Translations under genes and position numbers: made by a program
Notes under the pieces: generated by a model
Database searches by the model: none
Seen by the model: only the letters and a program-made list of their open reading frames with translations
Told to the model about the DNA's origin: nothing
Part shown: piece by piece, positions 11,840 through 26,866 of the stretch
How the letters are laid out: each line of letters opens with the position of its first letter
Numbering within the stretch: the stretch's first letter is position 1
Sequence record: NC_073056.1
Direction: 5' to 3' (one strand)
DNA length: 46,017 bases
Source: Escherichia phage rolling

Positions 11840-12358
11840 TTAATCTTCTAATTCGAAATACGTTTCTACGATTTCTTTTAAATCTTTGTGGAAGTCTTCG
11901 ACGTCGTCATCTTCCAGCTTGGCGACGGATTTAATTTCGAACGCTTCCAGCAGATCATCAAATTCGTCGTTTGCGTCGTCGTCATCTCCGCCCGCAATAA
12001 TAGCGGCATACTGTTTGATTTCGTCGCGCATTTCTTTAAGCGGATCGGCATCTTTCTTGCCTTTGCCTTTCGCCGGTGCTTTCTTAGATTTCGCCGGGGC
12101 TTCTTCCTCGTCCGCGTCGTCGTCTTCTTCTACGGCTTCTTTCTTAGCCTTGCCCTTTGCGGGCGCTTTTTTGGTCTTTGCCGGGGCTTCGTCTTCAGCA
12201 TCGTCATCTTCGGCTACTTCTTCTTTCGCCTTGCCCTTTGCCGGGGCTTTCTTCGCTTCCTGTTTACCAACGGCAGCGCCAGCAGTTTCATAATGCTTAG
12301 CGATGGTTTCCAGTGCTACAACGCCGCGAGTGATCAGGTTTACGATTTGCTCAAACAT
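11840..12358 (-). CDS. Charged low-complexity protein with three KKAPAKGKxKK / acidic repeats; first leftward early gene
   Basis: ORF track; ATG with GGAG RBS; repeats EEVAEDDDAEDEAPAKTKKAPAKGKAKK x3. Confidence 0.7.
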   Translation of the reverse strand: MFEQIVNLITRGVVALETIAKHYETAGAAVGKQEAKKAPAKGKAKEEVAEDDDAEDEAPAKTKKAPAKGKAKKEAVEEDDDADEEEAPAKSKKAPAKGKGKKDADPLKEMRDEIKQYAAIIAGGDDDDANDEFDDLLEAFEIKSVAKLEDDDVEDFHKDLKEIVETYFELED

Positions 12359-12419: not shown

Positions 12420-12449
12420 ATAATAGATTGGTTGCATGCGGGGTGTCAA
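12420..12449 (-). promoter_or_regulatory. Leftward early promoter (TTGACA-N18-TATTAT)
   Basis: Minus-strand -35 TTGACA (plus 12444-12449), -10 TATTAT (plus 12420-12425); ATTGGTTGCA motif (12427-12436) fills the spacer. Confidence 0.55.
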
Positions 12450-12628: not shown

Positions 12629-12958
12629 ATGCATATCAACGACGCAATCGAAATGTTAACCAATGCTGTTAGCGGTGAGACAAGCCGGTCCTGGGCTTAT
12701 ACCGATGCCGTGGGTGAGGTGCTATTTGAAATCGAACGTCTGCGCAGTGTCGAAAAAGAATTGCGCGCCAAGCTGGAATTGCTAAACGGTACGGCAGCAA
12801 GCAAGTTGCAAAAGCACAACGAAGAAATGGAAGAATACAAAAAGCAGGTTATCCGTTTACGCGACGAGGGCAAGTCCTGGGCGATGATTGCCGAGTTGAC
12901 AGGAATTAATCAGAGCACCGTACGCTCATGGGTACGCAATAATAAAACTTCTAAATAA
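12629..12958 (+). CDS. HTH DNA-binding regulator (109 aa)
   Basis: C-terminal helix-turn-helix SWAMIAELTGINQSTVRSWVRN; ATG with AGGAG RBS. Confidence 0.75.
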   Translation: MHINDAIEMLTNAVSGETSRSWAYTDAVGEVLFEIERLRSVEKELRAKLELLNGTAASKLQKHNEEMEEYKKQVIRLRDEGKSWAMIAELTGINQSTVRSWVRNNKTSK

Positions 12959-15230: not shown

Positions 15231-15339
15231 TTTGTGCGCGTATTGGTTGCCGATATGGGAATTCCCATATCGCTAAAAGATTAAATTTTGCGCGCATTGG
15301 TTGCCATTTTGGGTGTTTTTAGCTGGTCGCATTGGTTGC
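15222..15339 (+). repeat. Tandem duplication of primase 3' end with three ATTGGTTGCC motifs and a 22-bp perfect palindrome
   Basis: AAAGATTAA..GCGCG.ATTGGTTGCC at 15222-15251 and 15276-15305 (~27/30 identical); palindrome CGATATGGGAATTCCCATATCG at 15251-15272; third ATTGGTTGC at 15331-15339. Confidence 0.7.
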
Positions 15340-15371
15340 CGTGTAGTGTAAATATAGTGAATAGTTATGCA

Positions 15372-15547
15372 GTTTTATTGCATAAAGTAAGCGGGACAAA
15401 AAGCGGGACAAACATGGGGCGGGACAAAGCGGGACAGCACCCCCTGTCCCGCCCGGATGGCGCGGCTTGCGGAGGAGCGGGACAGGCGGGACAAACCTCA
15501 GTCTTTCAGACTAGACGGGGTCAGTTGGCCCCCCTCGTCTGAGACTG
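15372..15547 (+). repeat. Iteron array 1: GCGGGACA x7 with TGCATAA motifs and conserved ~50-bp imperfect hairpin
   Basis: GCGGGACA at 15391, 15403, 15419, 15429, 15477, 15487 plus inverted TGTCCCGC at 15445; hairpin 15499-15547; AT-rich stretch just upstream. Confidence 0.85.
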
Positions 15548-15701
15548 CATAAAATCCGGGATTGCATAACGCACGGCAGCATGATGTGAATTGCGGTCGT
15601 CGATGAACTAGGCAACCAATGCGTGTTGAATAATGGAGAGTGAAAAATGCAGTTTGCAGTTGCAGCAGATAGCGATCAACTTTTTCATACGCATGATTAA
15701 T

Positions 15702-15742
15702 ATTGGTTGCATTCAGCCTGGCACCCTGCTAGATTGGTTGCA
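15702..15742 (+). promoter_or_regulatory. Promoter-like element with two ATTGGTTGCA motifs upstream of gene 15764
   Basis: ATTGGTTGC 15702-15710 and ATTGGTTGCA 15733-15742; TTGCAT-N17-TAGATT reads as a sigma70-like promoter. Confidence 0.45.
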
Positions 15743-18697: not shown

Positions 18698-18762
18698 TTG
18701 CTTGACTTGCAACCAACATAAGGGCCATACTGCAACCAATCAACGAGAAGGAGTAACACACT

Positions 18763-25229: not shown

Positions 25230-25362
25230 ACCGCCTTGCACATTTGAGAATGCCTCGGCAGACCCAGACGAAGACTTGCTTGTTGATGTTAAAAATATGG
25301 AGTGCGGATCTAAGCTGCGGGCGCAAGTGCTGGAGTTGCAGAAAATAATTCTGGGGCCGTGA
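25132..25362 (+). CDS. o-spanin (Rz1-like lipoprotein), overlapping Rz in +1 frame
   Basis: Signal peptide with lipobox LSAC, Pro-rich mature part; ATG with AGAGG RBS. Confidence 0.75.
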   Translation: MLRVLTVLIVVLMLSACGSSKAPSTPLTESVYRPPCTFENASADPDEDLLVDVKNMECGSKLRAQVLELQKIILGP

Positions 25363-25379
25363 TGGCCCCCCTTTTGTTA
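25340..25379 (+). terminator. Terminator hairpin, left copy of a 40-bp direct repeat
   Basis: AGAAAATAATTCTGGGGCCGTGATGGCCCC + T-run; GGGGCC/GGCCCC stem, Rz1 stop codon in the loop. Confidence 0.7.
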
Positions 25380-25380
25380 A

Positions 25381-25893
25381 CTACAAACGCATCGGCATGA
25401 TAACTAAAAAGGAACCTCCTTTGAACAGCACGCGTGTTGCCTTGTCTACTCCCTGAAATTCCAGTTTTAAGCCCTCAAACTTATGGTCGAACAATTTAGC
25501 AATTTTGCAGGCGTCGGACAGGTATGCCCCTTTAAACCCGATAGCCTCCACTTTATTGCTGACGAAAGACGTAACTCTTCTCCAGTCTGGAAATCGTCCG
25601 TCTACAATCTCGATGGGTATGGTAGCTATTAATACGTCTTTACTATCGAAGAACGCGGCGGAGGTGCCGTCTATGTTGCAGTATTCGAATTTAGTAGGTA
25701 AGCGGCCTTTAATTGATACTATTTTACTTTCACCTTCTGGAACAACCGCGGACCCGCAGAACAAACGGTGACCGTCGGTAGCCACGATGAATCCTTTCTC
25801 GTCGAAAAATACACCATTTAGGAAGTATCGGACGTCATTAGTTGCGGCGCACATCGTAGCGGCTTTAATGTCGGCATAGTTAACTTTAATCAT
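25381..25893 (-). CDS. Truncated beta-sliding-clamp (DnaN) homologue (about 170 aa)
   Basis: DVRYFLNGVFF...VATDGHRLF, IVDGRFPDWRRV and C-terminal LVIMPMRL match DnaN domain II/III hallmarks as recalled from E. coli DnaN; start at internal ATG (M27) with GAGGA RBS. Confidence 0.75.
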   Translation of the reverse strand: MIKVNYADIKAATMCAATNDVRYFLNGVFFDEKGFIVATDGHRLFCGSAVVPEGESKIVSIKGRLPTKFEYCNIDGTSAAFFDSKDVLIATIPIEIVDGRFPDWRRVTSFVSNKVEAIGFKGAYLSDACKIAKLFDHKFEGLKLEFQGVDKATRVLFKGGSFLVIMPMRL

Positions 25894-25915
25894 TTTCATT
25901 TCCTCGTGGTTATGT

Positions 25916-25955
25916 AGAAAATAATTCTGGGGCCGTGATGGCCCCTTTTTTGTTA
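25916..25955 (+). terminator. Terminator hairpin, right copy of the 40-bp direct repeat
   Basis: 30/30 identical to 25340-25369 then T6; duplicates the last codons of Rz1 plus the hairpin. Confidence 0.7.
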
Positions 25956-26717
25956 GCGCGGAATACCGCAAATCTCGTTGAGTGTTTTCACGTCCAGCGC
26001 CACCGCCGTGGACTTCGTCTTGTTCTGATATGGAATGAACTGTTCAACTTCAGGCCACGCCTTGATCAGCTTCTTATCGGTATTGTGCATATCCAGCACG
26101 CCGGTAACAGTTAGCTTGAACGCGTCATACTTTGCGCGCAACTCGCGGCGGGCCTTGTCATTTCGGTCCAGGCGCTTGCAGAAATCATGATCGGCCGGGT
26201 AGTCTACGCGTCCGCGCGGGAGATATATCGGCAGCACTTTTCCGTCCTCATCCACTTCGCACACTGACGCGAGCATAATTTCCGCGTACCCCGGTACAAT
26301 ATCGCTAACGTCAGGCGCGAGCGTATTCATATATTTCTCTTCCCAGTATCCGCGATGCCGGCGGTAGCTGTATCCGTCACCGCTCATATACAGGGATCGG
26401 ATGTTACCGCCTGCGTTGATTTCGAAATTGTCGCAGTAAACGCACCCAATACCCTTCTGACGGTCTTTGTTATAGCTATACGTCGCCTTGTCGGTGTAAA
26501 CGCTGACGCCATACATCTGCGACTGGTTATTGCGGATTTCTTCGATATATGCGCGTAGCTCGGCGAACGTGCGAATGCCTTTTGGCATACAGTCCAGCGT
26601 AATTGCGTACGCCAGGTCGCGAGAGTCCATCATGATTGATTTGGCTTCAGTCGCGATTTCGTGGTCGCGCAGGATGTTAGCCAGAATCTGGTTTTTAATG
26701 TCTTTTGTCAGTCGCAT
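25953..26717 (-). CDS. Hypothetical protein (254 aa), moron gene antisense to the late operon
   Basis: Track ORF 25953..26762 from internal ATG (M16) with GAGGA RBS; no family recognised. Confidence 0.65.
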   Translation of the reverse strand: MRLTKDIKNQILANILRDHEIATEAKSIMMDSRDLAYAITLDCMPKGIRTFAELRAYIEEIRNNQSQMYGVSVYTDKATYSYNKDRQKGIGCVYCDNFEINAGGNIRSLYMSGDGYSYRRHRGYWEEKYMNTLAPDVSDIVPGYAEIMLASVCEVDEDGKVLPIYLPRGRVDYPADHDFCKRLDRNDKARRELRAKYDAFKLTVTGVLDMHNTDKKLIKAWPEVEQFIPYQNKTKSTAVALDVKTLNEICGIPR

Positions 26718-26739
26718 TTGTGTTTCCTCATTGTTGGTG

Positions 26740-26811
26740 TGCAACCAATATAGTGCAACCAATACCTGTATTGCAAGCGAATTTTGCGATTATTTTTATC
26801 GCTGATAATAT
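26740..26811. promoter_or_regulatory. Back-to-back divergent promoters (leftward for moron genes, rightward for scaffold/capsid)
   Basis: Leftward: TTGCAA (26771-26776) N18 TATATT (plus 26747-26752), with TGCAACCAAT at 26740-26749 and 26754-26763; rightward: TTGCGA (26784-26789) N16 TAATAT (26806-26811). Confidence 0.5.
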
Positions 26812-26866
26812 TAAAGGCGTGAAGTCGAGCGGGTGGCCCGCTCTGCCACGATCCCAGGGGGATAGC

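Follow-up and report, generated by a model that had tools for sequence, protein, structure and literature searches.

The stretch of DNA considered here (the window) comprises 46,017 nucleotides (nt) from Escherichia phage rolling (NC_073056.1) and is a near-complete genome, approx. 46 kb, of a Dhillonvirus, i.e., an HK578-like coliphage. In a megablast comparison, it is 93-95% identical, over nearly its full length, to vB_EcoS-101114BS4, WF5505, and the BASEL phage Bas83. The gene in question, nmad5, lies on the minus strand at 25953-26717. The local gene order in annotated relatives is terminase, portal, head morphogenesis, Rz/Rz1 spanins, opposite-strand nmad5, scaffold, major capsid, and tail. 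In the window, the Rz/Rz1 spanin genes end at 25362, and the scaffold gene, with an ATG at approx. 26867, is followed by the major capsid gene (names are taken from the annotation of Bas83, which is 93% identical to the window). The elements of the nmad5 unit are as follows:

25953..26717, minus strand: nmad5 coding sequence, 254 amino acids (aa) plus stop (open reading frame (ORF) and translation, Pfam PF18757, phrog_1965, and the ratio of nonsynonymous to synonymous substitution rates, dN/dS)
26725..26729, minus strand: Shine-Dalgarno sequence GAGGA, 7 nt 5' of the nmad5 ATG (read from the sequence; GAGGA is present in 12 of 12 orthologous loci)
26747..26776, minus strand: sigma-70-type promoter, TTGCAA (26776-26771), N18, TATATT (26752-26747) (promoter scan; kept in 13/13 loci)
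26754-26763 and 26740-26749, minus strand: two copies of the decamer ATTGGTTGCA, in the promoter spacer and over the -10 element and +1, respectively (motif enrichment; probable operator sites)
25929..25945, no strand assigned: GC-rich hairpin GGGGCC-N5-GGCCCC, bidirectional and terminator-like, just 3' of the nmad5 stop (-15.4 kcal/mol, z=-3.2)

A sequence-only reading of this locus had proposed a 254-aa protein encoded on the minus strand between the spanin genes and the scaffold/capsid genes. The location is borne out by the above coordinates and by the Bas83 annotation, and the ORF is real and evolves under purifying selection (median pairwise dN/dS of 0.14 for 12 Dhillonvirus orthologues). 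The same reading recognised no family for the protein, and here it was mistaken, as both profile- and structure-based homology searches lead to the Nmad5 family. Pfam PF18757 (Nmad5, 'nucleotide modification associated domain 5') matches the window protein over its full length with E=6.6e-56 and 190.1 bits (cut-off 27), residues 1-253 being aligned with positions 1-206 of the 206-position profile. All PF18757 signature residues are found in the protein, which is also matched by phrog_1965 (E=2.7e-60). A Foldseek search of BFVD with the protein model retrieved Nmad5 of Siphoviridae sp. (E=1.5e-28, template modelling (TM) score of 0.82) and further members of the family, namely, the Nmad protein of phage C130_2 (E=3.6e-13) and proteins of eiAU, PhiJL001, and Vibrio phages (E from 1e-7 to 8e-4). 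Translation begins MRLTKDIK from the ATG at 26717-26715; a 269-aa version starting from a TTG at 26762 was rejected, as this codon falls within the promoter and the sequences of 50 of 159 family members (clustered at 50% identity, the set behind the residue conservation figures given below) open exactly with MRLT. The window gene is thus the nmad5 of a Dhillonvirus, a near-core (approx. 148 Dhillonvirus records at ≥60% identity) but dispensable accessory gene of the PF18757 family. Both the gene and the family are already known, and an orthologue has already been studied in this genus; as a discovery, the locus therefore adds little, since the family is Pfam-curated and the orthologue has a published phenotype.

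The regulation of nmad5 can be approached through its upstream region. The composite TTGC-N18/19-TA(T)ATTGGTTGC (also given as TTGC-N18/19-TATATTGGTTGC) heads the leftward nmad5 unit in all 13 Dhillonvirus loci examined, among which the spacer sequence is not constant and, in some, an additional, variable gene stands before nmad5. The -10 element and leader (TAnATTGGTTGCACACCAACAA-GAGGA) are near-identical to those of a second promoter at 15707 on the plus strand. The sequence-only reading had noted TTGCAA-N18-TATATT together with two motif copies upstream of the gene and had compared this arrangement with the promoters of the replication operons. All of these elements are present (26776-26747 in the promoter scan; motif copies at 26740 and 26754), and the comparison is justified by the decamer that the nmad5 promoter shares with a replication promoter at 12449-12420. 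Read on the other strand, the two copies at 26740-26749 and 26754-26763 are TGCAACCAAT. With up to one mismatch, 18 decamers were found in the window vs. 3.4 expected, and none of 100 shuffled sequences reached 18. The sites, which occur in both orientations, are distributed as follows:

1328-1349, 2888-2914, 5847, 12427, 15242-15742 (six), 16287, 18708-18740, 26740-26763, and 42869, both strands: ATTGGTTGCA/TGCAACCAAT sites

The promoter at 12449-12420, TTGACA-N18-TATTAT, is the strongest sigma-70-like site of the replication region (11/12 matches) and heads the leftward replication operon. The decamer at 12427-12436 falls in its spacer and, at the same time, overlaps the -35-like TTGCAT of the rightward operon, which encodes a helix-turn-helix (HTH) protein and the primase-helicase. 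Decamer sites whose flanks were checked lie in promoter-like regions (nmad5, the divergent replication promoters at approx. 12427, 15707, and TTGCAA-N17-TATAGA at 1340). Because the decamer is found in both orientations at promoters, with one inverted pair (1328-1349), it behaves as an operator for a phage regulator rather than as a promoter element; it is probably the operator of a phage-encoded regulator. Six copies fill the 530-bp gap after the primase-helicase gene, and this cluster could alternatively mark an origin. A candidate for the decamer-binding regulator is the 109-aa protein encoded by the first gene of the rightward primase-helicase operon (12629-12958, plus strand), which has a C-terminal HTH (HTH_23, HTH_28, and Sigma70_r4_2 matches). 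In Bas83, this protein carries the annotation 'transposase'.

By itself, a promoter-like match at nmad5 is not significant, as the scan gave two such matches in 2.2 kb vs. 2.4 expected. It is raised above chance by the enrichment of the decamer, by the presence of the composite in all 13 loci, and by the -10 element and leader in common with the promoter at 15707. The hexamers, a spacing within 16-18 nt, the conservation, and a decamer common to early promoters are all found at nmad5, as would be expected of an early-type sigma-70 promoter under a phage operator. No Dhillonvirus time-course transcriptome was evident from titles and abstracts in a literature search, and early expression of nmad5 is plausible; the fact that the gene keeps a copy of the operator-controlled promoter of the replication type is the best available argument for it. 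The folding of the nmad5 5' leader is no better than that of shuffled sequence (z=-0.38). On the other side of the intergenic region (26784-26845, plus strand), a weak rightward promoter-like sequence, TTGCGA-N16-TAATAT, has 8/12 matches, too few for the scan threshold, and the scaffold leader that comes after it contains a GAGCGGG-TGG-CCCGCTC hairpin. If this sequence is a promoter, nmad5 and the scaffold/capsid unit would be served by divergent promoters within one intergenic region.

What is known about the function of Nmad5 in Dhillonviruses comes from a study of the phages SM_S22 and SM_A8 (Yamashita et al. 2025, Commun Biol, PMC11846954). Phages that escaped the Tmn defence carried Nmad5 substitutions, K296E in SM_S22 and K216E in SM_A8; reversion of the substitution restored Tmn sensitivity, and the engineered K to E change gave escape (PMC11846954). 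Deletion of nmad5, in SM_S22 without anti-Tmn, left a phage that was viable and still Tmn-sensitive, and cloning of the wild-type gene failed, apparently due to toxicity to E. coli (PMC11846954). It is from the family name that the authors take Nmad5 to be a DNA-modification enzyme (PMC11846954). The SM_S22 protein is an orthologue of the window protein (81% identity), and that of SM_A8 is equal to it in length (254 aa); in both phages, the gene has the same position between the spanin and scaffold genes and the same promoter as in the window. The window protein also has the escape residue, K216, within the motif TDKKLIKAWPE, as in SM_S22 and SM_A8. The loci differ in gene content: in the window, nmad5 directly follows the promoter and has a clamp-like cassette behind it, whereas SM_A8 has a 104-aa gene upstream instead. 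The 334-aa annotation of SM_S22 (PP627283, 5005-6009) is over-extended, as its 80 extra codons cross the promoter into scaffold antisense sequence; the real start is M81, i.e., MRLTKD behind GAGGA. With the start at M81, K296 and K216 are one and the same residue, and the 'N-terminal truncation' of SM_A8 relative to SM_S22 described in the 2025 paper is an annotation artefact.

A parallel may be drawn with phage T2, for which a 2026 preprint reports that Tmn is activated by direct binding of RIIB, an early, replisome-associated protein, and that single residues decide the outcome (PMC13001434). Thus, in T2 as in Dhillonviruses, single-residue changes in one phage protein decide the Tmn outcome, and RIIB is linked to the early, replication stage of infection. 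However, RIIB has no sequence kinship to Nmad5, and RIIB nonsense mutants escape Tmn, whereas the nmad5 deletion does not. Because nmad5 is dispensable, is apparently toxic when cloned, and decides the Tmn outcome through a missense change, it is reasonable to assign Nmad5 a role at the interface between phage and host defence. The sequence-only reading had made the protein a candidate for host takeover or anti-defence. The part that concerns the defence interface is probably right, given the K to E escape and the toxicity; a simple anti-defence factor is disfavoured, as deletion neither sensitises nor rescues the phage on Tmn cells.

The pattern of conservation within the family is informative with respect to mechanism. 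The conserved positions are R2-L3-T4, G104, G113, T213, L217, W221-P222-E223, P229, L246-N247, and G251-(L/I)-P253, with conservation of the signature residues ranging from 67% to 99%. Most are hydrophobic, glycine, or proline; the polar ones are R2, T4, T213, E223, and N247, and among the 159 members there is no conserved set of His, Asp, Cys, or Lys as in many enzyme active sites. The middle region varies across the family by indels of approx. 50 aa, and Dhillonvirus Nmad5 has central insertions of approx. 40-50 aa compared with other PF18757 members. At the C-terminus, the LN...G(L/I)P motif ends 0-10 residues from the last residue in 125 of the 125 members that carry it. The escape residue K216 sits between T213 and L217, inside the family signature motif; position 216 is K, R, or Q in 141 of the 159 members, and none of its six commonest residues (155/159) is acidic. 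The AlphaFold 2 (AF2) model of the window protein, built from a 30-sequence alignment, has a mean predicted local distance difference test score (pLDDT) of 75 and a predicted TM score of 0.74. It consists of a helical bundle (5-17, 20-42, 51-64, and 178-209), a small beta subdomain (76-110 and 164-173), and two short helices (214-227). In the DSSP string of the model, isolated beta-bridges are assigned to residues 2 and 213 alone, as would be expected if the N-terminus packed against the T213 turn. The conserved C-terminal tail is modelled at pLDDT <50, and such a combination of strong conservation and low pLDDT is the signature of a short linear interaction motif. Neither phmmer nor a profile search against PDB sequences gave a match to Nmad5, and there was no match in NCBIfam or in PADLOC, the latter being a library of defence systems and not of anti-defence proteins. 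In these searches, no recognisable catalytic fold or kinship to a solved enzyme was found.

Nmad5 is widespread, and annotations routinely present it as a 'DNA modification enzyme', a biochemically unsupported label. A profile search yielded 832 clusters (50% identity) with E<1e-3, most of the proteins being 170-250 aa long, and tblastn located members in 338 phage records, which include Dhillonviruses, Pseudomonas M6-like phages, Stx-converting and other lambdoid phages, and Vibrio and Bordetella phages; one alphaproteobacterial phage was also among the matches. The genomic contexts were inspected by hand in approximately a dozen lineages, which does not amount to statistics. Outside Dhillonviruses, all of the inspected contexts are early, replication, recombination, or modification regions, and never the structural module. 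In Klebsiella phage VLCpiS11a (Guernseyvirinae type) and its metagenomic relatives, nmad5 comes second in a replication operon that is collinear with that of the window. Both modules comprise a lead protein rich in Lys and acidic residues, small genes, a DUF2800 exonuclease (55% identical between the two), an Enc34/Gp2.5-type single-stranded DNA-binding protein, PolA, Lar, and an SNF2 helicase, and both have a divergent HTH gene and primase-helicase; the lead 172-aa protein is 35% identical, and the 232-aa Nmad5 of this type shares approx. 23-30% identity with the window protein. In Dhillonviruses, however, the operon slot that nmad5 occupies in VLCpiS11a is empty, and the gene, approx. 14 kb distant, has a copy of the regulated promoter to itself.

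Other lineages show a similar preference. In a second metagenomic type, nmad5 follows PolA, with an N6/N4 methyltransferase gene two genes downstream. The mEp235 gene belongs to the pL operon, where N/Nun immediately precede it and cIII, kil, and the recombination genes follow. The slot between N and cIII in lambda holds accessory genes such as ral. In the Salmonella phage SPN3UB, nmad5 is a nin-region gene that comes after O/P, a DpdA-like gene, and eaa; here, the homologue lies two genes after the DpdA-like gene, annotated 'queuine tRNA-ribosyltransferase'. In Jilinvirus ep3 and in Bas97, nmad5 follows a helicase gene; in PTXU04, it comes directly after a DNA methyltransferase gene, with overlapping stop and start codons; and in Smarc2 and C130_2, it closes the early operon and is followed by the holin gene. 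In Yuavirus and Vojvodinavirus (M6-like), it is placed between the genes for 5-hydroxymethyldeoxyuridine (5-hmdU) kinase or aGPT and that for deoxyuridine (dU) hydroxymethylase, upstream of PolA. The family is thus associated with at least three chemically different DNA-modification systems. This association, on which the name Nmad5 is based, holds for some relatives and is absent from the window: Dhillonviruses have no hypermodification genes, the neighbours of the window nmad5 are spanin, clamp-like, and scaffold genes, and the Dhillonvirus methyltransferase genes are in the distant leftward replication operon, far from nmad5. Whereas other members of PF18757/phrog_1965, e.g., those of M6-like Pseudomonas phages, are found in a replication/modification cluster, the Dhillonvirus gene has its own promoter amid structural genes. 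Judged by these comparisons, Dhillonviruses are an exception in the position of nmad5 and not in its regulation.

Taken together, these data can be accommodated by an explanation to which, as a whole (identity, expression, and mechanism), we assign a probability of roughly 0.5. Transcription of nmad5 would run leftward, opposite to the late genes on either side, and start at a sigma-70-type promoter of its own, over which a pair of operator-like ATTGGTTGCA sites is placed; as both of the divergent promoters of the replication operons bear this element too, nmad5 most likely shares its on and off switching with the early DNA-replication genes. The transcript would end at the conserved bidirectional hairpin, behind which an extra clamp-like cassette appears to have been inserted in this lineage. 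Tentatively, and with somewhat less than even odds, we propose that Nmad5 is a non-enzymatic binding or adaptor protein of the early stage of DNA metabolism. Its helical bundle would bear an interaction surface composed of the N-terminal M-R-L-T, the T213-x-x-K216-L217-x-x-x-W221-P-E223 helix, and the conserved, probably flexible tail L246-N247-x-x-x-G251-L/I-P253. The partner engaged by this surface might be a conserved component of the machinery for replication, recombination, or post-replicative DNA modification, and this engagement would also account for the toxicity of the cloned gene. K216E, a charge reversal in the middle of the surface, would alter what Nmad5 binds or exposes without destroying the protein, and this fits the finding that deletion does not give escape. 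The identity and regulation of nmad5 are much firmer than the mechanism. Several points weigh against the proposal. Two beta-bridge residues of a medium-confidence model are all that indicates a contact between the N-terminus and T213; a new catalytic fold is possible, in which R2, T4, T213, E223, and N247 could form an active site; and a direct role in modification may lie behind the recurrence of the gene beside 5-hmdU enzymes, a DpdA-like transglycosylase, and methyltransferases.

The last two points bear on the idea, implied by the family name and adopted in the 2025 paper, that Nmad5 is an enzyme or an obligatory subunit of DNA base modification. In Dhillonviruses, it would act on phage DNA, perhaps with the two phage methyltransferases, and Tmn sensitivity would depend on the modification. 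The 5-HMUDK and dU hydroxymethylase genes that adjoin the homologues in Yuavirus and Vojvodinavirus, the cassette described for SN1 and M6 (PMC9476957), the DpdA-like gene in SPN3UB, the overlapping methyltransferase gene in PTXU04, the N6_N4 methyltransferase gene two genes downstream in the second metagenomic type, and the five polar positions conserved throughout the family all speak for such an activity. Nonetheless, we consider it unlikely. There is no recognisable catalytic fold, Dhillonviruses lack hypermodification genes and keep their methyltransferase genes far from nmad5, and the lambdoid copy resides in the pL operon among regulatory and recombination genes. Moreover, the 5-NedU pathway of M6 has been reconstituted in vitro with purified gp51-gp54, none of which is an Nmad5 homologue (PMC8989533). 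That a missense change alters Tmn sensitivity while deletion leaves it unchanged is also hard to square with the sensing by Tmn of a modification made by Nmad5. Overall, a binding protein agrees better than an enzyme with what sequence and structure show.

Comparably unlikely, in our view, is that Nmad5 is a dedicated effector of host takeover or anti-defence directed against a host protein (a defence other than Tmn or an essential function), with the early region as its usual home. Such a role would agree with a gene that is dispensable for plaques and toxic when cloned, with its location in an island of variable content where different small genes stand between promoter and nmad5, with the mEp235 copy between N and cIII, and with missense changes that alter the Tmn outcome. 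On the other hand, wild-type nmad5 gives no protection from Tmn, its deletion has no phenotype on Tmn cells, and near-core status, purifying selection, and a spread across Escherichia, Pseudomonas, Vibrio, and Bordetella phages are more typical of a housekeeping accessory gene than of an arms-race effector. Less likely still is that Nmad5 is the protein sensed by Tmn, in the manner of T2 RIIB, and that K216E abolishes recognition. The T2 precedent, in which an early replisome-associated protein is bound directly and single residues decide (PMC13001434), and the convergence of escape mutations in two Dhillonviruses on one Nmad5 residue would suit this idea, but the allele acts as a gain or change of function, and the deletion phage stays Tmn-sensitive; on the strength of this published deletion, Nmad5 as the sole Tmn trigger was rejected (PMC11846954). 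Compared with these alternatives, a binding or adaptor protein is the preferred reading. Nmad5 controls Tmn escape in an unexplained gain-of-function manner, and the points that can be used from this analysis are the placement of the escape residue in the signature motif, the SM_A8/SM_S22 truncation artefact, and the preference for a binding protein over an enzyme. They are relevant to the engineering of Dhillonviruses for therapy.

The surroundings of nmad5 also deserve attention. At and beyond the hairpin at the end of nmad5, the following features were found:

25381..25893, minus strand: beta-clamp-like accessory gene, 170 aa from the ATG at 25893 (Pfam, TIGR00663, AF2, Foldseek)
25913..25955, no strand assigned: 43-nt direct repeat, right copy (repeat search, 93% identity, 576-bp spacing)
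25337..25379, no strand assigned: 43-nt direct repeat, left copy, which contains a second hairpin (25353-25369), the terminator after the spanin gene

The label 'DnaN-like', which the sequence-only reading had given to the neighbouring gene, is upheld by four approaches. The Pfam match to DNA_pol3_beta_2 is weak (E=2.6e-5, below the gathering score); TIGR00663 dnaN aligns over positions 138-247 of its 367-position profile (E=7e-7), the protein being far smaller than a full clamp; and the AF2 model (pLDDT 92.9) matches the E. coli beta clamp (DnaN) in Foldseek with E=1e-7, a TM score of 0.65, and approx. 21% identity. The same reading had placed this gene and nmad5 in one co-transcribed two-gene unit. 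They are indeed adjacent and on the same strand, but the hairpin stands between the nmad5 stop and the clamp-like gene, so that co-transcription needs read-through, and the cassette is missing from approximately two thirds of Dhillonviruses. The hairpin itself is found at +771 from the nmad5 ATG in 13/13 Dhillonvirus loci. The clamp-like gene forms a 576-bp cassette between the 43-nt direct repeats, each of which contains GGGGCC-N5-GGCCCC, and in Shigella phage EP23 it is located upstream of nmad5 instead. A conserved operon of nmad5 and the clamp-like gene was rejected, as repeats flank the cassette, most genomes lack it, and in EP23 it is on the opposite side. The genome comparison thus presents the clamp-like gene as a neighbour and not a conserved partner, apparently a recent, lineage-specific cassette insertion.

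The 5' side of nmad5 is variable as well. Among Dhillonvirus loci, at least four unrelated small ORFs (of 70, 104-109, 135/153, or 186 aa) are seen between promoter and nmad5; this slot is a hotspot for accessory genes. Nine loci have an upstream ORF of 104 to 186 aa, and in these a GGGGCG(A/G)AAGCCCC hairpin is located 32 nt before the nmad5 ATG; no such hairpin is found upstream in the locus with the 70-aa ORF. Given the cassette and the variable slot genes, the locus may be described as a cassette-accepting island, with a fixed promoter, nmad5, and a bidirectional terminator, in the gap between two rightward late units.

A more far-reaching possibility is that Nmad5 is a non-catalytic replisome adaptor whose conserved, flexible C-terminal tail, L-N-x-L-x-G-L-P, docks in the cleft of a beta clamp, either that of the host or the 170-aa clamp-like protein of the phage. 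The tail consensus L-N-x-(L/I/M)-(C/I/L)-G-(L/I)-P resembles the QLVLGL variant of Pol IV, with an invariant Asn where terminal clamp-binding motifs such as QL[S/D]LF or QLxLxL have a highly conserved Gln. In Pol IV, the 'LGL' of the C-terminal QLVLGL inserts into the beta-clamp cleft (PMC3716654). In addition, the clamp-like gene has been captured beside nmad5 in two different arrangements. If the idea were correct, Nmad5 would tether post-replicative modification or recombination factors to new phage DNA, and an adaptor of this kind would explain the link to unrelated modification systems, the toxicity, and why K216E, and not deletion, hides the phage from Tmn. We nevertheless regard clamp docking as a long shot. 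The phage groups most represented differ between the two families (Escherichia, Pseudomonas, and Stx-converting phages for Nmad5; Salmonella, Escherichia, and Klebsiella phages for the clamp-like protein), which weighs against it. The clamp-like family is present in 265 phage records and, among the records listed, is often annotated as 'RusA-like Holliday junction resolvase'. The name is also attached to phrog_3007, and the predicted clamp-like fold does not support it.

A further observation concerns the leftward replication operon of the window. Its lead gene (11840-12358, minus strand) encodes a 172-aa protein in which three KKAPAKGKxK repeats are set between acidic runs. It has no meaningful Pfam match, only a sub-threshold one to BUD22 (E=0.0092), and it may be a histone-like protein or a DNA mimic. 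The gene is followed by a terminator-like hairpin at 11831-11812.

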